IMG/VR virus record: IMGVR_UViG_2609460221_000003
DNA length: 26,287 nucleotides
Strand: one strand, 5' to 3'
DNA from: a virus
Lineage: Duplodnaviria > Heunggongvirae > Uroviricota > Caudoviricetes
Positions 3,365 through 24,645 of the stretch are shown here, piece after piece (the stretch's first letter is position 1; each line of letters begins with the position of its first letter). Under the pieces are notes generated by a model that had not been told where the DNA came from, searched no databases, and worked only from the letters and a program-made list of their open reading frames with translations. The translations under genes and the position numbers were made by a program.

Positions 3365-3477
3365 ATGGCATTTAAACACTATGACGTGGTCAGGGCGGTA
3401 TCGCCGTCAGACCTTGCGAAACGACTGACACAAAAACTGAAGGAGGCTGGCAGCCGTTTGGTAGTCCGGTGGCCATA
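3365..3477 (+). CDS. Out-of-frame N-terminal segment of the esterase gene (DUF1737-like leader), 37 codons
   Basis: ATG 3365 preceded by a strong RBS GGGAGGA at 6-nt spacing; translation MAFKHYDVVRAVSPSDLAKRLTQKLKEAGSRLVVRWP* ends at 3475-3477, overlapping the start of the main esterase frame. Confidence 0.45.
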
Positions 3478-5220
3478 ACCCCTTATACCCTGATGCAGGC
3501 GATTGCAGCAGAAGGTGATGTGGTGGTCAGTGGTGCAACTGAGCCGGATTGGTACTACGTCATCGTACTGGCCGGGCAGTCCAATGCCATGGCTTACGGT
3601 GAAGGGCTTCCGCTGCCGGATTCATACGATGCGCCCCATCCGCGCATTAAGCAACTGGCCCGTCGTAACACAGTGACTCCCGGTGGTGAAGTATGCGTAT
3701 TTAACGACATCATTCCTGCTGACCATTGTCTGCATGATGTTCAGGATATGAGTACGATTAACCATCCCCGGGCTGACCTGAGCAAAGGGCAGTACGGCTG
3801 TGTCGGACAGGGCTTACATATTGCCAAAAAACTGCTTCCGTATATCCCTAATAACGCGGGGATCCTGCTGGTACCATGCTGTCGTGGTGGTTCGGCATTC
3901 ACCCAGGGCACGGAGGGGACATTCAGCGAGTCCACGGGGGCCAGTCAGGATTCGGCTCGCTGGGGAGTGGGTAAGCCGTTATATCAGGATCTGCTTTTCC
4001 GCACGAAGGCAGCATTGCAGAAAAACCCGAAAAACGTTTTGCTGGCGATATGCTGGATGCAGGGGGAATTCGATATGACGAATGCCAGTTACGCCCAGCA
4101 GCCAGCAGCATTTCTTGCAATGGTACAGCAGTTCCGTGCTGACCTTGCCGGGCTGGCGGCGCAGTGTCACGGTGGAAGTCCGGCATCAGTCCCCTGGATT
4201 TGTGGCGACACGACATACGCGTGGAAACAAGAACACGGTACGCAATATGAAGTGGTATATGGTGCATATAAAGGTAAAGAATCCCAGCAGATTTATTTTG
4301 TTCCCTTTATGACCGATGGTAGCGGAGTTAATACACCGACAAACAACCCGTCAGAAGATCCTGATATTGCCGGGTCTGGTTATTACGGTTCGGCATCCCG
4401 AACGAACAAAAACTGGGTATCATCAAATCGCCCGACGCATTTCAGCTCATGGGCGCGTCGTGGCATTATTCCCGATCGTATGGCAACTGCTATTCTGAAC
4501 GTAGCCGGTCGCACCTTAGCCTTCATTAGTGGTAAGGCACCGGAAATCAAACCCTCGCCCGGCGGCGACACTCCATCGGGGCCGTCTGATGGTGACACAT
4601 CCGTTCGTACAGTCTCCCTGCTGCCGACAGCCGGAGAGGCTGCTGCGCAGGGCTGGACCATCACCGGCGGCAGTGTTGCGCTGGAAGATGGTGTGTTTAA
4701 GGTTACCAAGCAGAGCAATAAAACTTGGTCCCTGATGCATCCGGTGGATGACGCAGTCTCCCTGCTGACACGGGGTGGCAGACTGAGCTGTAAGTTTCGA
4801 CTGTCAGGCGCACTGACCAACAACCAGTTCGGTCTGGGAATTTATCTGTATACCGATGTAGCGTTACCTGACGTCGTGGCGATGACCGGGACTGGTAACC
4901 CGTTCCTGATGTCGTTCTTCACCCAGACCACAGACGGCAAACTGAATCTGATGCATCACAGGAAAGCAGGAAACACAAAGTTGGGCGAGTTCGGGAATTA
5001 CAGTAACGACTGGCAGACGCTGGAGCTGGTGTTCACCGCCGGCAGTGCCACGGTTACTCCGAAACTGAATGGAGTGGCTGGCCCGGCATTCCAGGTCATA
5101 AAAGACAGTCTGACACTGGGGCTGAATGCGCTGACGCTGACGGATATTACCAAAAATGCAGCGTATGGCGTTGAGATAGAAAGTCTGGTGCTGGAGATAA
5201 ATGCACCAGCATCATCATAA
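3469..5220 (+). CDS. Prophage sialate 9-O-acetylesterase (NanS-p-like, SGNH/SASA hydrolase with C-terminal extension)
   Basis: 583-aa ORF. The N-terminal part carries the esterase signature (VIVLAGQSNAMAYGEG; WMQGEFD). It sits in the usual NanS-p position between Q/toxin locus and holin. The true start is probably ATG 3365 in another frame (see findings). Confidence 0.8.
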   Translation: MAITPYTLMQAIAAEGDVVVSGATEPDWYYVIVLAGQSNAMAYGEGLPLPDSYDAPHPRIKQLARRNTVTPGGEVCVFNDIIPADHCLHDVQDMSTINHPRADLSKGQYGCVGQGLHIAKKLLPYIPNNAGILLVPCCRGGSAFTQGTEGTFSESTGASQDSARWGVGKPLYQDLLFRTKAALQKNPKNVLLAICWMQGEFDMTNASYAQQPAAFLAMVQQFRADLAGLAAQCHGGSPASVPWICGDTTYAWKQEHGTQYEVVYGAYKGKESQQIYFVPFMTDGSGVNTPTNNPSEDPDIAGSGYYGSASRTNKNWVSSNRPTHFSSWARRGIIPDRMATAILNVAGRTLAFISGKAPEIKPSPGGDTPSGPSDGDTSVRTVSLLPTAGEAAAQGWTITGGSVALEDGVFKVTKQSNKTWSLMHPVDDAVSLLTRGGRLSCKFRLSGALTNNQFGLGIYLYTDVALPDVVAMTGTGNPFLMSFFTQTTDGKLNLMHHRKAGNTKLGEFGNYSNDWQTLELVFTAGSATVTPKLNGVAGPAFQVIKDSLTLGLNALTLTDITKNAAYGVEIESLVLEINAPASS

Positions 5221-8579: not shown

Positions 8580-8710
8580 TTATTTCATCAGAAATTAATT
8601 ATCACTCTGTTGTTATTCTGTACATCCCGGCAGGGTAAGTCTTGTTCTGTCGGATATGAAGATGAAATATTGTTGGAGGACAGTNGGTACCTGCTCCTGT
8701 AACCGAACGT

Positions 8711-9318: not shown

Positions 9319-9410
9319 CCCGACCCCGGGGGGGTATCATCCGGCGTAAAAAACGATCGCTTTGGACACCGCGCCCCCTCTCACGCAGAGAAAAAATTCC
9401 CGTTTCANGG

Positions 9411-9608: not shown

Positions 9609-10172
9609 GTGCTGACAACGCAAAAACGAAAATTTGCGCTGGCGCTCATGTCCGGGAAAAACAAAACAGCGTCAGCCATTGCCGCCGGTTATTCGGCGAA
9701 GACCGCCAGGGTTAAAGGCTCGCAGCTGGCAAAAGATCCGGAGGTGCTTGCGTTTATAGCCCGTAAACAATGCGAGACGGTGGAGGTGGATGAGGTTCCT
9801 GTTTACCGGCAGAAAAAATCAGAGCAGGAGGATAAACCCCGTCGCCGTGAGGCGGCTGCAATACCACAGCCGGACGAAAACAATCCGGAGATGCCACCGT
9901 CCGCGGTGATGTCTCCTGGTATTGAATATATGGAGGATGGTCTTCCCGATCCGGTGAAAGCCATGGGGCGGATCCTGGTGGAAAACCTCTGCATTGATCC
10001 GAAACTGGCACTGGATGCGGCCTGGCGTCTGGCGCAGTTCACGCACCATAAAAAAGGGGATACCGGGAAAAAATCGGCAAAAGGTGATGCCGCGAAAAAA
10101 GCGGCTAACCGTTTTGCGGTGCCACCGCCACCCCGACTGGTGGTGAATAACGATAATGAGGGCAACGGATGA
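9609..10172 (+). CDS. terS: Terminase small subunit
   Basis: GTG start with strong RBS GGAGGAGG; N-terminal HTH typical of TerS (KRKFALALMSGKNKTASAIAAGYSAKTARVKGSQL); stop overlaps terL start (ATGA). Confidence 0.8.
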   Translation: MLTTQKRKFALALMSGKNKTASAIAAGYSAKTARVKGSQLAKDPEVLAFIARKQCETVEVDEVPVYRQKKSEQEDKPRRREAAAIPQPDENNPEMPPSAVMSPGIEYMEDGLPDPVKAMGRILVENLCIDPKLALDAAWRLAQFTHHKKGDTGKKSAKGDAAKKAANRFAVPPPPRLVVNNDNEGNG

Positions 10173-11830
10173 TACCTGTATGGAGCACAGCCTGCCCGGA
10201 CTGGGCAGAGCGCCTGAAAAAGGGGCTGTCGATTATTCCGGATCCGATTTATCCGGACGAGGCCGCACATGCCCTGGCGATTTTTAAACAACTGCGGATT
10301 GTGGATGCACCTGGTAGCCCTACGTTCGGGGAGTCCTGTGCACCGTGGGTGTTTGACCTGGTGGCGGCCCTGTTTGGCTCCTACGATGCGCAGACCGGTG
10401 TACGCCATATCAAGGAAGTTTTTATCCTTATCCCCAAGAAAAACTCGAAGTCCACGCTGGCCGCGGGGATCATGATGACTGCACTGTTACTGAACTGGCG
10501 GCAGGCGGCGGGTTACACGATTCTGGCCCCGACTGTGGAGGTGGCGGCCAACGCCTTCAACCCTGCCCGGGATATGGTACGACGTGACGATGATCTGGAT
10601 GACCTCTGCCAAGTACAGACCCATATCCGGACCATCACCCACCGGGTGACAGACACCACCCTGAAGGTGGTGGCAGCCGATCCGAATACGGTGTCCGGTA
10701 TCAAGTCCGTGGGTACGCTGATTGATGAGTTGTGGCTGTTTGGCAAGCAGTGCAAGGCGGAGGACATGTTACGTGAAGCCATAGGCGGCCTTGCCTCCCG
10801 CCCGGAAGGGTTTGTGGTGTATACGACCACCCAGTCGAATGAACCGCCCGCCGGGGTGTTCAGACAGAAACTGCAGTACGCCCGGGATGTGCGCGACGGC
10901 AAAATTCATGATCCGCACTTTCTGCCGGTGATATTTGAACACCCTCCTGAAATGGTGGAAAGCGGGGCTCACCTGCTGATGGAAAACCTCGCCATGGTCA
11001 ATCCTAATCTCGGCTATTCAGTGGATGAGGCCTTTCTGTACCGGGAGTACCGTAAAGCCCGGGAAGCCGGTGAAGAGACATTCCGGGGGTTCATGTCAAA
11101 ACACGCCAATGTGGAAATTGGTCTTGCCCTGCGCTCTGACCGCTGGGCGGGGGCTGATTTCTGGGAAGAGCAGGGCCGTTGTATCAGCCTGGACGATATC
11201 CTGCGTCGTGCTGATGTGGTGACGGTGGGGATTGACGGCGGAGGGCTGGATGATCTGCTGGGGATGTATGTGATTGGGCGTGACCGGGAGACCCGCGAAT
11301 GGCTGGGCTGGGGCCATGCCTGGGCGCATGAAACCGCGGTGGTCCGACGGAAGAGCGAGGCGTCCCGGTTTCAGGATCTTGTTGCCTGTGGAGATATGAC
11401 CATTGTCCGGCGTGTCGGGGATGACACGGCGGAAGTGGCGGAATATGTGCGTCGCATTCATGAGGCTGAGTTACTGGACCATATCGGTATTGACCCGTCA
11501 GGGGTGGGGCAGATTCTGGATTCACTGGCGGAAGCCGGGATCCCCGACGGAATTGTGGTGGGGATAAGCCAGGGCTGGAAACTGGGCGGGGCCATTAAAA
11601 CCACCGAGCGCAAACTGGCTGAAGGGGTGCTGGTGCATGGTGACCAGCCCCTGATGGCCTGGTGTGTCGGCAATGCCCGGGTGGAGCCTAAAGGTAACGC
11701 CATTCTTATCACCAAACAGGCCAGTGGACGGGGAAAAATTGACCCGTTGATGGCGCTGTTCAATGCGGTCTCCCTGATGTCCCTTAACCCGGAACCGAAA
11801 AAGAAAGAATATGCGGTTTTTTTCATATAA
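10169..11830 (+). CDS. terL: Terminase large subunit (ATPase/nuclease)
   Basis: 553 aa; Walker A-like ILIPKKNSKST; size and position typical of TerL. Confidence 0.9.
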   Translation: MIPVWSTACPDWAERLKKGLSIIPDPIYPDEAAHALAIFKQLRIVDAPGSPTFGESCAPWVFDLVAALFGSYDAQTGVRHIKEVFILIPKKNSKSTLAAGIMMTALLLNWRQAAGYTILAPTVEVAANAFNPARDMVRRDDDLDDLCQVQTHIRTITHRVTDTTLKVVAADPNTVSGIKSVGTLIDELWLFGKQCKAEDMLREAIGGLASRPEGFVVYTTTQSNEPPAGVFRQKLQYARDVRDGKIHDPHFLPVIFEHPPEMVESGAHLLMENLAMVNPNLGYSVDEAFLYREYRKAREAGEETFRGFMSKHANVEIGLALRSDRWAGADFWEEQGRCISLDDILRRADVVTVGIDGGGLDDLLGMYVIGRDRETREWLGWGHAWAHETAVVRRKSEASRFQDLVACGDMTIVRRVGDDTAEVAEYVRRIHEAELLDHIGIDPSGVGQILDSLAEAGIPDGIVVGISQGWKLGGAIKTTERKLAEGVLVHGDQPLMAWCVGNARVEPKGNAILITKQASGRGKIDPLMALFNAVSLMSLNPEPKKKEYAVFFI

Positions 11831-11856
11831 CCCTGTTCACACTGTAACCATCACGA

Positions 11857-11877
11857 ACCGCTCCGGCGGTTTTTTTA
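11857..11877 (+). terminator. Intrinsic terminator-like hairpin between terL and the protease gene
   Basis: ACCGC-TCCG-GCGGT followed by TTTTTTT. Confidence 0.5.
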
Positions 11878-11893
11878 TTTTCAGGAGGCTGAT

Positions 11894-12883
11894 GTGACTC
11901 TTAAACGGGCCTGTTCCCTGCTGACGGTGAAATCCTTCAGTGAGGATGAACGAGTGATCACCGGGATTGCGTCAACGCCTTCTCCGGATCGGGATGGTGA
12001 CATCCTGGAGCCGGAGGGCGCGGAGTTTGGCAGTGCGATCCCGTTTCTCTGGCAGCATGACCATTCCCGCCCGGTGGGGCAGTGTACGGTGCGCCGGGTC
12101 AGCGAAGGGCTGGAAATCACGGCAACACTGGTGAAGCCCGTACCGGATATGCCGTCGCAACTGGCTGCCCGGCTGGATGAGGTCTGGGCGGCCATTAAGA
12201 CCGGGCTGGTCAGGGGGCTGTCCGTGGGCTTCCGTCCCCATGAATACACCTTTCTGGACGGAGGCGGACTGCATTTTCTGCGCTGGGAACTGATGGAGGT
12301 GTCTGCCGTCACCGTGCCCGCGAATGCGGAATGCACCATCCGGACCATTAAATCTTACGACCGCCCGTTTTCTGCCGCGTCCGGCAACCGGAAACCGGTG
12401 GTGAAAATCGCATCTTCTGCCGGCGCTGCGGCACAGTCAACAACCGTTTTTCATAAGGAAAAGACCATAATGAATATTGGCGAACAGATTAAAAGTTTTG
12501 AAAACAAGCGTGCAGCGCTGGCAGCCTCCCTTGAGGAGGTCATGACCAAAGCCGCAGAGGAAGGGCGCACGCTGGATGTGGAGGAGGAAGAGCATTACGA
12601 CAACACCGCAGCGGAAATCCGTCAGGTGGATGCGCACCTGAAGCGCCTGCGTGAACTGGAAGCCGGTAAGGCCGCCACGGCGCAGCCGGTGAAACAGGCC
12701 GGTAACGGGAATGTGGCCGCGGTGGCTTCTGCGCCGGTGATCCGTGTGGAGCAGAAACTGGATAAGGGGATTGGCTTCGCCCGCTTTGCCAAATCGCTGG
12801 CTGCGGCTAAAGGCGTCCGATCTGAAGCCTGGAAGTGGCCCGTCGTCAGTATCCGGATGACAGTCGTCTGCATCATGTCCTGA
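11894..12883 (+). CDS. HK97-family prohead protease with C-terminal scaffold-like coiled-coil region
   Basis: N-terminal about 170 aa has the prohead serine protease pattern (FLWQHDHSRPVG...GLSVGF...EVSAVTVPAN); C-terminal about 150 aa is a charged coiled-coil (delta/scaffold-like). Frame runs into the capsid ORF. Confidence 0.8.
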   Translation: MTLKRACSLLTVKSFSEDERVITGIASTPSPDRDGDILEPEGAEFGSAIPFLWQHDHSRPVGQCTVRRVSEGLEITATLVKPVPDMPSQLAARLDEVWAAIKTGLVRGLSVGFRPHEYTFLDGGGLHFLRWELMEVSAVTVPANAECTIRTIKSYDRPFSAASGNRKPVVKIASSAGAAAQSTTVFHKEKTIMNIGEQIKSFENKRAALAASLEEVMTKAAEEGRTLDVEEEEHYDNTAAEIRQVDAHLKRLRELEAGKAATAQPVKQAGNGNVAAVASAPVIRVEQKLDKGIGFARFAKSLAAAKGVRSEAWKWPVVSIRMTVVCIMS

Positions 12884-13830
12884 AATCGGCAGTGGGCGCG
12901 GGGACCACCACGGATCCGCAGTGGGCAGGCAGCCTGTCTGAATATCAGGAATACGCACAGGACTTTATTGATTACCTGCGTCCGCAGACCATTATCGGGC
13001 GATTTGGTCAGGGCGGGATCCCTGCACTTCGTCAGGTGCCGTTCAATATCCGTGTGCACGCCCAGGTGTCCGGCGGTGCTGCCGGCTGGGTGGGTGAGGG
13101 TAAGGCAAAACCCCTGACGAAGTTTGATTTTGAATCCATCACCTTCAGTCATGCGAAGGTGTCGGCCATTGCGGTACTGACGGAAGAATTGATCCGTTTT
13201 TCCAGTCCGGCTGCTGATGCACTGGTCCGTAATGCGCTGGCGGAAGCGGTGGTGGCGCGTCTGGATACAGACTTTGTGGACCCGAAAAAAGCCGCAGTGG
13301 CAGATGTCTCCCCGGCGTCCATCACCCATGATGTGAAGGGCACGGCATCAACCGGTAACCCGGATGCGGATGCAGAGGCTGCGTTTGGACAGTTTGTGGC
13401 AGCAAACCTGCAGCCCACCGGTGCGGTCTGGCTGATGTCCAGCACCAATGCCCTGGCACTGTCCATGCGTAAAAATGCGCTGGGTCAGAAGGAATACCCG
13501 GACATGACCCTGCTGGGTGGCTCCTTCCAGGGGCTGCCGGTGATTGTCTCCCAGTACGTGGGTGACCAGCTGGTGCTGGTGAATGCCCCGGATATTTATC
13601 TGGCGGATGACGGCGGCGTGGCAGTGGATATGTCCCGCGAGGCATCACTGGAAATGCAGTCTGAGCCGGGCGGCGACAGTACCACGCCGTCCCCGGTGGA
13701 GCTGGTTTCCATGTTCCAGACAGGCAGCGTGGCCATCCGTGCGGAGCGCTGGATCAACTGGCGTCGTCGCCGTACCGCGGCGGTGGCGGTGATCACCGGA
13801 GTGAACTACGGCAGTGCGTCCGGCGGCTGA
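12835..13830 (+). CDS. Major capsid protein, HK97 fold
   Basis: 331-aa ORF with HK97-like MCP character; begins in a different frame overlapping the protease/scaffold ORF by 49 nt. Confidence 0.8.
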   Translation: MARRQYPDDSRLHHVLKSAVGAGTTTDPQWAGSLSEYQEYAQDFIDYLRPQTIIGRFGQGGIPALRQVPFNIRVHAQVSGGAAGWVGEGKAKPLTKFDFESITFSHAKVSAIAVLTEELIRFSSPAADALVRNALAEAVVARLDTDFVDPKKAAVADVSPASITHDVKGTASTGNPDADAEAAFGQFVAANLQPTGAVWLMSSTNALALSMRKNALGQKEYPDMTLLGGSFQGLPVIVSQYVGDQLVLVNAPDIYLADDGGVAVDMSREASLEMQSEPGGDSTTPSPVELVSMFQTGSVAIRAERWINWRRRRTAAVAVITGVNYGSASGG

Positions 13831-14041
13831 GTCTGATAAGGAGGACGGGAGGCGTGCGCCTCCCGTAACAGGTTATGGCAAAGATCCGATATCTGCAGGG
13901 CACGCATGATGCCCGGGCCGGGGATATCCGTGATGTGGCACAGCCGTGTGCGGAGGTGCTGGTTCGCCTGGGAAAGGCGGAGTACATCACGGTGCGACGT
14001 CCGGCAGGTCAGAAAAAGAAACGTGATGCGGAGCATGGCGA

Positions 14042-23902: not shown

Positions 23903-24645
23903 ATGACACAGACTGAATCAGCGATTCTGGCGCATGCCCGGCGGTGTGCGCCTGCGGAGTCGTGCGGCTTCGTGATAAGCACGCCGGAGGGGGAGCGGTA
24001 TATCCCTTGTGTGAATATTTCCGCAGAGCCGGAGGCGTATTTTCGTATCGCACCGGAAGACTGGCTGCGGGCAGAGATGCAGGGGGAGATTGTGGCACTG
24101 GTCCACAGTCATCCCGGTGAGCTGCCCTGGCTGAGCGAGGCTGACCGGCGGCTGCAGATAAAAAGCGCACTGCCTGGTGGCTGGTCTGCCGGGGGGAAAT
24201 TCATAAATTCCGCTGTGTGCCACATCTGACAGGACGGCGCTTTGAGCACGGGGTGACGGACTGTTACACGCTGTTCCGGGATGCATACCATCTGGCGGGA
24301 ATTGATATGCCGGATTTTCATCGCGAGGATGACTGGTGGCGCAACGGCCAGAACCTGTACCTGGACAATATGGCGGTCACCGGCTTTTACCGGGTGNCCC
24401 TGTCCTCTGCACAGCCGGGCGATATCCTGCTGTGCTGCTTCGGCGCATCGGTGGCTAATCATGCCGCCATTTACTGCGGCAACGGTGAACTGCTTCACCA
24501 TATTCCTGAACAACTGAGTAAACGGGAGAGGTATTCCGAAAAATGGCAACGACGAACGCATTCTGTCTGGCGTCACCGCCACTGGCACACATCTGCCTTC
24601 ACGGGGATTTACAACGATTTGGCCGCCGCCTCAGCCTGTATGTGA
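23903..24645 (+). CDS. K: Tail assembly protein K (MPN/JAB plus NlpC/P60 domains), frame-disrupted
   Basis: N-terminal piece MTQTESAILAHARRC... (MPN-like, HSHP motif) ends at 24229; C-terminal piece with NlpC/P60 Cys/His motif (GDILLCCFGASVANHAAIYCGNGELLHH) is in another frame from about 24217; N at 24397. 3' end uncertain (overlaps I). Confidence 0.75.

Follow-up and report, generated by a model that had tools for sequence, protein, structure and literature searches.

In phage HK97, the prohead protease gp4 and the capsid protein gp5 are encoded by separate genes. In lambda C/Nu3, Mu I/Z and P2 gpO, the protease is combined with a nested or fused scaffold, and phage structural genes are known to use programmed frameshifts in some cases. 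Fusions of protease and capsid protein are described as common in small siphoviruses (PMC9671004) and have been reported in archaeal proviruses (PMC6563490); by description, they are like the gene studied here in that protease and major capsid protein lie in one polypeptide. Literature searches yielded only such general reports on protease-capsid fusions and no experimental work specific to the fused protein of E. coli.

The underlying fused gene is already known, and annotations of it as a fusion go back two decades. Phages BP-4795 and YYZ-2008 carry it as 'major head protein/prohead protease', phage 2851 as 'major head protein Gp17', and RefSeq holds the same single 645-aa gene as WP_000173030.1, named 'phage major capsid protein'. 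The earlier note on this DNA, made from the letters alone, had mentioned annotated prohead protease/major head fusions in some enterobacterial prophages, and BP-4795 ORF56, YYZ-2008, Stx2a_WGPS6 and JLK-2012 bear that name. The window, meaning the whole stretch of 26,287 nt that was analysed (IMG/VR record IMGVR_UViG_2609460221_000003), carries a copy that shares 98-100% DNA identity along its full length with the genes of phage 2851 Gp17 (CAQ82040.1), BP-4795 ORF56 (CAD88857.1), YYZ-2008, Stx2-converting phage 1717 and WP_000173030.1. Compared to the last of these, the sole difference is a C missing from the window at 12828-12829. The neighbours are those of long-tailed lambdoid/Stx phages, namely TerS, TerL, the fused gene, a 73-aa ORF and the portal gene; this order differs from that of HK97 in that the portal gene follows the capsid gene. 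Like lambda C/Nu3, Mu I/Z and P2 gpO, the fused gene links protease and scaffold covalently, and it could conceivably have an in-frame start in its interior. Unlike these systems, the window's family holds the capsid protein within the same ORF, and any nested product is putative here.

Domain architecture of the fused head gene

Judged from its sequence, the locus is one gene, not two, and its 645-aa product is a polyprotein predicted to consist of an S78 prohead protease, a delta or scaffolding domain, and an HK97-fold major capsid protein. Its parts lie at the following window positions:

11883..11888, plus strand: Shine-Dalgarno sequence AGGAGG of the gene (dG -10.3 kcal/mol), serving the GTG start at 11894
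11894..13830, plus strand: whole fused gene, a CDS of 1938 nt and 645 aa in relatives, 1937 nt long in the window
12035..12349, plus strand: Peptidase_S78 domain (HK97 gp4-type prohead serine protease), residues 48-152 (PF04586, E 6e-9)
12470..12750, plus strand: predicted delta (scaffolding) domain, a helical hairpin or coiled coil, residues ~193-285 (from the structure model and the N-terminal part of TIGR01554)

The S78 domain sits at the N-terminus and scores 36.6 bits with PF04586 (cut-off 21); TIGR01543 gives 48 bits, under its cut-off of 59. A helical, coiled-coil-like stretch follows the Peptidase_S78 match, in line with the scaffold-like coiled coil that had been placed at the C-terminus of the protease ORF. 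The AlphaFold2 model, built on a 17-sequence alignment, is poor (mean pLDDT 39, pTM 0.25), and the delta-domain helices 195-222 and 229-261 are the only part with a pLDDT >70. The 331-aa ORF at the 3' end matches Phage_capsid (PF05065, E 1e-14). When the missing base is restored, the repaired protein reaches 78 bits with TIGR01554 (cut-off 27.5), with residues 204-584 covering profile positions 3-355 in one stretch that crosses residue 312; on its own, the capsid ORF of the window matches positions 153-355 only. The profile for prohead protease/major capsid fusions, NF045541 (scaf_prot_MCP2), gives 54-57 bits over the protease and linker only and does not reach its curated cut-off of 525 bits, and a PDB sequence search returned one weak capsid match, 9d9w (E 0.0019).

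Among complete E. coli genomes, ~23% carry the fused gene, and at E <= 1e-30 it matches more than 1,000 of the clusters formed at 50% identity. More than 130 of the best 150 cluster representatives at 50% identity are 630-680 aa long and align end to end, and the junction peptide RSEALE(V/I)A..YPDD is kept in fused homologues of 73-78% identity from many Enterobacterales genera. HK97 gp4/gp5 and the relatives in Snodgrassella alvi and Acidovorax (L040, L043, L039) are composed of the same modules, an S78 protease, a delta scaffold and an HK97-fold capsid protein. Compared to these unfused relatives, the window's family has lost the stop between protease and capsid, resulting in one polyprotein. 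We infer that the delta domain ends, and that maturation cleavage takes place, near the conserved IRVEQKL(E/D)KG motif; the N-terminus of the mature capsid protein is accordingly predicted near IRVEQKLDKG/IGFARF, upstream of residue 312. By analogy with HK97, the delta domain of the intact protein would drive procapsid assembly and take the tethered protease inside, where the protease would cut away itself and the delta domain.

A single-base difference from the relatives

As given in the window, the reading frame of this gene is interrupted at codon 313, and two overlapping ORFs appear in its place:

11894..12883, plus strand: 5' fragment ORF, 329 aa, GTG start (ORF list and sequence)
12835..13830, plus strand: 3' fragment ORF, 331 aa, GTG start (ORF list and sequence)
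12828..12829, plus strand: lesion, a CC run in place of the CCC of every relative checked (GAAG-CCC-TGGAAG; from the alignment)

The two ORFs share 49 nt (12835-12883) in different frames, the capsid frame being -1 relative to the protease frame, as both the ORF list and the sequence confirm for the overlap that had been noticed earlier. The capsid frame is also, as described then, open from 12826, past a TGA at 12823-12825, with the reading SLEVARRQYPDD; across the overlap, the protease frame reads GVRSEAWKWPVV. At the lesion, the window has GAAGCCTGG, with CC at 12828-12829, and every relative checked has GAAGCCCTGG. The two overlapping ORFs thus arise because the missing C shifts the frame at codon 313, inside the capsid N-arm, and restoring one C mends it. 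Residues 1-312 of the 5' fragment, which extend from the protease through the linker and the delta domain into the first part of the capsid N-arm, are authentic; 17 out-of-frame residues (WKWPVVSIRMTVVCIMS) and a stop follow. The window version is 1 nt short and meets its first stop at codon 330 of 646. The 3' fragment, from GTG 12835, covers residues 315-645 of the intact protein. The lesion site includes a CCTGG (Dcm) motif.

Aligned with E. coli Ecol_316, phage 2851 and phage BP-4795, the window shows exactly one indel in 2.1 kb, the missing C at 12827-12829. This C apart, the gene is 100% identical to that of Ecol_316, and it is 99.7% identical to that of phage 2851. The earlier note had offered a fusion gene split by an indel as one reading and an alignment with the closest head genes as the check; the alignment bears this reading out, as the relatives carry one CDS and the window lacks one C. 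Its expectation that a single-base change near 12827-12832 would join the frames holds for the position, the relatives' extra C lying at 12828-12829, and not for the product, which is 645 aa rather than about 655 aa.

The window allele is absent from all 1,247 complete-genome records of E. coli that match a 61-nt query across the site (2,885 places) and from the 30 phage matches listed, all of which span 2,102 nt, compared to 2,101 nt for the query. In IMG/VR, no contig has the CC version, compared to 72 with CCC. The best complete-genome matches (E118, WP4-W18-ESBL-09 and W46) are 99.9% identical over 22.6-23.4 kb, and none is identical. A 331-aa ORF is also found in two GenBank-only complete genomes, CP043015.1 and CP058231.1; it is not the window allele. 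These genomes carry other indels, many of them at CCWGG motifs or homopolymers, and at the lesion site an indel-rich GenBank-only assembly carries a different indel.

Causes of the missing base

The sequence around the gene carries a distinct error signature. Compared to E. coli W46, the nearest finished genome, the window differs over 23.4 kb by 1 substitution, 4 contractions of GGG/CCC runs (3444, 12827, 20797 and 24172), 5 G/C runs whose first base is an N, and 2 inserted N; the N anomalies lie at 8685, 9408, 16746, 17698, 21776, 22068 and 24397. All eleven single-base anomalies lie in or beside short G/C runs, and the chance probability that 9 of 9 would fall in G/C runs of at least three is ~5e-10. 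Four more genes of the window are broken: DUF6645, a gp10-like gene, the tape-measure gene and a C40/K-like gene. As the missing C is one of these eleven homopolymer and N anomalies, a sequencing artefact is its most likely cause, and we consider the split of the fused gene very probably a consensus or base-calling error of the source assembly, that is, technical rather than mutational in origin. A run of three C is, for its part, short for a homopolymer error, which speaks against an artefact.

A functional arrangement, in which the capsid protein is translated from GTG 12835 or reached by a programmed -1 frameshift in the 12826-12883 overlap, deserves hardly any credence. The capsid frame does lie at -1 to the protease frame with an overlap of 49 nt; yet the two-frame layout occurs in no relative, all of which are in frame with one more C, and the split falls inside the conserved capsid N-arm, where S310 and A312 are invariant, whereas relatives with two genes split at Met193. 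No slippery heptamer of the form X XXY YYZ is present in any phase in 12790-12883, and this, together with the unconserved layout, leads us to reject the programmed frameshift that the earlier note had considered. A separate capsid gene starting at GTG 12835 is rejected likewise: no Shine-Dalgarno sequence precedes this codon (dG -0.2 kcal/mol, compared to -10.3 at the gene start), it is an internal Val codon in all relatives (ALEVARRQ), and the break lies in the conserved N-arm. Nor does the arrangement correspond to separate genes of the HK97 gp4/gp5 type, in which the boundary falls behind the protease and ahead of the delta domain; the window break is at residue 312, in the capsid part. 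A genuine layout would have been supported by homologues that share both overlapping ORFs along with a functional GTG start, but no finished genome, phage or viral record checked shows this arrangement. Other copies of the arrangement come only from short contigs of automatic read-set assemblies, which bear further single-base deletions in C/G runs.

These contigs bear on whether the missing C is instead real and the fused head gene a frameshifted pseudogene of a prophage, a reading we regard as improbable. Such a gene would yield a shortened protein of protease and delta domain and, at the most, a piece of the capsid protein that lacks both the delta domain and the N-arm, so the prophage would be unable to build heads. 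Prophages are subject to decay, and visible degradation is seen in the Arsenophonus homologue (L035). An identical 329-aa product recurs among Logan contigs, where 57 short ones with the phage 2851 haplotype encode it. The deletion is seen on two haplotypes, that of the window in SRR18191147 and that of phage 2851 in the SRR2187xxx series; a real recurrent or recombining allele would also give such a pattern of one frameshift product in other public read sets. In SRR18191147, the contig differs from E. coli W46 between the end of TerL and the portal gene by the 12827 deletion as its only indel; farther upstream it has one more single-base gap relative to the window, at 9322. The nine Logan contigs examined against phage 2851 from TerL to the portal gene show 0-1 substitutions each, and they too bear single-base deletions in C/G runs that differ between sequencing runs. 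Against a real mutation stand the variation of these deletions by run and their absence from finished genomes (the TerL deletion is found in none of 668 complete-genome records), as well as the absence of the allele itself from the 1,247 complete-genome records, the phage records checked and IMG/VR. Moreover, about one indel or N per 2 kb alongside 1 substitution in 23.4 kb is far too dense and too one-sided for natural decay. More improbable still, to the point of being remote, is a single-C loss that is both real and recurrent at CCCTGG (Dcm motif), arising independently or spread by recombination on at least two haplotypes; if true, this on/off lesion would keep lambdoid or Stx-type prophages that are intact in other respects from producing heads.

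The main worth of the artefact reading is as a quality flag. Homopolymer or N errors occur in the window at a density of roughly one in 2 kb, so any pair of ORFs that overlap out of frame there is to be distrusted, the four further broken genes included.

Met193 as natural boundary and candidate nested start

The boundary between the ancestral protease and capsid genes lies at Met193 rather than at residue 312. Two features are of note there:

12470..12472, plus strand: ATG of Met193, ancestral start of the delta-domain/capsid gene (separate-gene relatives start the capsid there)
12455..12459, plus strand: AAGGA, 10 nt ahead of ATG 12470, a weak Shine-Dalgarno-like motif (dG -6.2 kcal/mol)

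M193 is invariant among the fused homologues aligned, and query residue 193 is where the alignment of stand-alone capsid proteins begins. Unfused relatives open their capsid gene with an M-x-(I/L)-x-EQI motif, as at Met193; the separate genes of Snodgrassella and Acidovorax begin with MTIEEQI and MNLQEQI. Nesting in the style of lambda C/Nu3 had been named as a possibility for the overlap. It finds no support at the split site, and the putative nested start is instead Met193, 120 codons upstream. Here, the intact gene would also yield a 453-aa delta-capsid protein, so that only a minority of subunits would carry the protease. This reading concerns the intact gene and leaves the out-of-frame overlap unexplained.

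We regard such internal initiation as possible, though on balance doubtful. Beyond the invariance of Met193 and its identity with the capsid start codon of unfused relatives, all 20 fused homologues examined have a purine-rich, Shine-Dalgarno-like motif at a distance of 6-12 nt upstream, despite their differing linkers (KGN, HKEK, NKEH, QEV). The motif is weak, however, with a dG of -4.3 to -7.1 compared to -6.1 to -12.1 at gene starts, and 5-20% of within-gene positions score equally well. As the homologues are related, the motif may have been kept by common descent or be left over from the fusion. Initiation at Met193 is nonetheless more plausible than a real, recurrent loss of the C. If the Met193 start is used, the fused head gene would constitute a nested pair, encoding both a protease-capsid protein and a capsid protein.

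Two overlapping head ORFs and one missing base

The prohead protease and the major capsid protein of the window lie on two ORFs in different frames, the downstream one shifted by -1 against the upstream one.

Head genes and domains (ORF coordinates and strand from the ORF table and the sequence; domains from Pfam)
10169-11830: TerL, immediately 5' of the protease ORF
11894 (GTG) to 12881-12883 (TGA), + strand: 5' ORF, 329 aa
Residues 48-152 of the 5' ORF, + strand: Peptidase_S78 (HK97 gp4-type prohead protease)
12835 (GTG) to 13830, + strand: 3' ORF, 331 aa
Within the 3' ORF, + strand: Phage_capsid (HK97-type)
14042-16627: portal protein, 861 aa, 3' of the capsid ORF

The ORF table and the sequence confirm the 49-nt out-of-frame overlap described in the earlier note, with the capsid frame open from 12826, following a TGA at 12823-12825. 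That note had asked whether an indel has split a fusion gene here or the arrangement is genuine, and its first reading is correct. Aligned base by base with E. coli Ecol_316, phage 2851 and phage BP-4795, 2.1 kb contain only one indel: the window reads GAAG-CC-TGG (CC at 12828-12829), whereas all three read GAAG-CCC-TGG. The missing base aside, the window and Ecol_316 are 100% identical across the 2.1 kb. With the C put back, ...AAKGVRSEA runs on into LEVARRQYPDD... at residue 312 of the repaired 645-aa protein, along which residues are numbered here. The same region is a single 1938-nt CDS of 645 aa in all records compared (Ecol_316/RefSeq, phage 2851, BP-4795).

Annotation of the single CDS
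RefSeq WP_000173030.1, 645 aa: 'phage major capsid protein'
Phage 2851, 645 aa: 'major head protein Gp17 / phage head maturation protease'
BP-4795 ORF56, 645 aa: 'putative major head protein/prohead protease'

A 2.1-kb query over both ORFs matched 1,260 complete E. coli genome records and 93 phage records, and the top matches to this 2,101-nt query cover 2,102 nt. None of the 1,247 complete-genome records (2,885 places) matched by a 61-nt query with the site at its midpoint carries the window allele; the best matches, at 98.4%, differ by the one-base gap. Among IMG/VR contigs, the 25-mer with CC occurs in none and the 26-mer with CCC in 72. We conclude that the missing C is very probably a sequencing or consensus artefact.

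The capsid domain across the break

The HK97 capsid profile TIGR01554 spans residues 204-584 of the repaired protein unbroken (profile positions 3-355), running across residue 312, while the 3' ORF alone covers positions 153-355 only. Fused proteins of 643-650 aa with both Pfam domains and 73-78% identity occur in Salmonella, Enterobacter, Klebsiella, Serratia, Pantoea, Kosakonia, Yokenella and others. An alignment of 14 Enterobacterales fused proteins shows a conserved junction peptide with S310 and A312 invariant. In a scan of one genome per species, an unbroken ORF of 644-655 aa is present at 18 Enterobacterales loci, and one of 638-677 aa, depending on start choice, in Reyranella, a Burkholderiaceae MAG and Candidimonas. 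A search of 1.84 billion cluster representatives gave 1,183 matches at E <= 1e-30; of the top 150, over 130 are 630-680 aa long and align end to end.

Where protease and capsid are separate, the boundary lies elsewhere. Snodgrassella alvi encodes a protease of 234 aa and, after it, a capsid protein of 439 aa beginning MTIEEQINAVK, the separate capsid protein of Acidovorax begins MNLQEQIKRL, and alignments to stand-alone capsid proteins of 456-478 aa start at query residue 193-196. The capsid gene of unfused relatives thus begins exactly at the position of Met193 (ATG 12470), which is therefore the natural boundary, 120 codons 5' of the window's break. The break itself falls within the capsid part, soon after a conserved IRVEQKL(D/E)KG motif, which we take to resemble the end of the HK97 delta domain.

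Programmed frameshifting, an alternative raised in the earlier note, and separate translation of a capsid gene from GTG 12835 are both ruled out, because no X XXY YYZ heptamer occurs in any phase from 12790 to 12883, GTG 12835 lacks Shine-Dalgarno complementarity (dG -0.2 kcal/mol; the gene's own start has -10.3, with AGGAGG at 11883-11888), and no relative compared keeps the two-frame layout.

Probable run-length errors in the window and in other read sets

Compared with E. coli W46 over 23.4 kb, the window has a single substitution, at 15873, alongside single-base anomalies.

Anomalies relative to W46
3444, 12827, 20797, 24172: single-base contraction of a GGG or CCC run (n=4)
8685, 9408, 16746, 21776, 24397: N in place of the first base of a G/C run (n=5)
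17698, 22068: inserted N (n=2)

Genes frameshifted by these anomalies
3365-5220: DUF6645 gene
17307-17754: gp10-like gene
19618-22860: tape-measure gene
23903-24645: C40/K-like gene

Since G/C runs of at least 3 hold 9.3% of aligned bases, the chance that 9/9 anomalies fall in such runs is about 5e-10. Where reads disagree on homopolymer length, a consensus caller puts out this combination of shortened runs and N in a run's first position. Apart from these four genes and the fused head gene, all remaining window genes are intact, and ORF oddities at 3444, 8685, 9408, 16746, 17698, 20797, 21776, 22068, 24172 and 24397 should be treated as artefacts.

It is improbable that the missing C is instead a real change, either a private inactivating mutation or a recurrent allele. 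In its favour, the identical 329-aa frameshift product occurs on 57 short Logan contigs (runs SRR2187182 to SRR2187256, plus SRR18191147), and the same deletion was therefore assembled from other read sets; because the SRR2187xxx contigs carry the phage 2851 haplotype, it also stands on a second background. From TerL to the portal gene, however, the nine of these contigs that were examined have 0-1 substitutions against phage 2851, all other differences being single-base deletions in C/G runs, which vary between sequencing runs: an AACCCTG deletion in TerL is present in 5/7 contigs covering that site and in 0/668 matching complete-genome records, while deletions at AGCCCTTT and in a G6 run appear in one contig only. 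Furthermore, one event per 2 kb in the window with substitutions nearly absent is unlike prophage decay. The 52% identical homologue in the Arsenophonus endosymbiont of Aleurodicus floccissimus (NZ_OUND01000001.1), lying in several short ORFs of 65, 148, 115 and 189 aa, is by contrast a genuinely decayed copy.

Two GenBank-only complete E. coli genomes, CP043015.1 (3478194-3483189) and CP058231.1, show the same 331-aa ORF in the head module shared with the window, with many indels. They were rejected as carriers of the window allele, their frameshifts being others; the pattern (11 indels in 5 kb of CP043015.1, many at CCWGG (Dcm) motifs) looks like uncorrected long-read assembly errors. CP043015.1 has an inserted C within AGCCCTGG, the site of the window's deletion, and given this and the Logan contigs, the site seems prone to error across more than one type of data.

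The intact fused gene and its surroundings

The head module runs TerS, TerL, protease/capsid, small ORF, portal (9609-16627). The portal gene lies 3' of the capsid gene, unlike in HK97 or lambda. Reyranella, Acidovorax, Snodgrassella and Candidimonas, all distant relatives, likewise have TerL immediately 5' of the protease gene or fused gene. The Phage_portal domain is confined to residues 54-382 of the portal protein, whose long C-terminal extension contains a 162-nt (54-aa) unit repeated in tandem 3.3 times at 94% identity (15629-16161); the lone true substitution against W46 falls inside these repeats. A 73-aa ORF at 13875-14096, 'hypothetical' in relatives, overlaps the portal start by 55 nt; a Snodgrassella ORF following the capsid gene has a similar N-terminus (MEIKYLKDMHDAAVGEVKDV, compared to MAKIRYLQGTHDARAGDIRDV in the window).

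A helical hairpin at residues 195-261 is the sole confidently modelled part of the protein. By analogy with HK97, we postulate that this delta domain would serve as an internal scaffold and that the protease, being linked to this domain, would enter the procapsid with it and there go on to cleave itself and the delta domain, so that the mature capsid protein remains. An internal start at Met193 of the lambda C/Nu3 kind, from which a delta-capsid protein of 453 aa would be made, is conceivable but rather unlikely. Met193 is invariant, with AAGGA 10 nt 5' of its ATG (12455-12472), and a purine-rich motif (AAGGA, AAAGGAAA, AAGAGG) is kept 6-12 nt upstream in 20/20 fused homologues despite varying linker residues; yet the motif is weak, 5-20% of intragenic positions score as well, and the 20 homologues are related to each other. 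Such a start has no bearing on the out-of-frame overlap, for which the nested arrangement suggested earlier fails as an account.

Protease-capsid fusions are on record elsewhere too: PMC9671004 calls them common in small actinobacteriophages, and they are present in thaumarchaeal proviruses (PMC6563490). NCBIfam NF045541 is a curated model of one such fusion family; membership of the window protein was rejected at 54 bits against a cut-off of 525. The split ORF pair holds nothing new: it is an already known gene, the fused 'major head protein/prohead protease' of long-tailed lambdoid and Stx phages.
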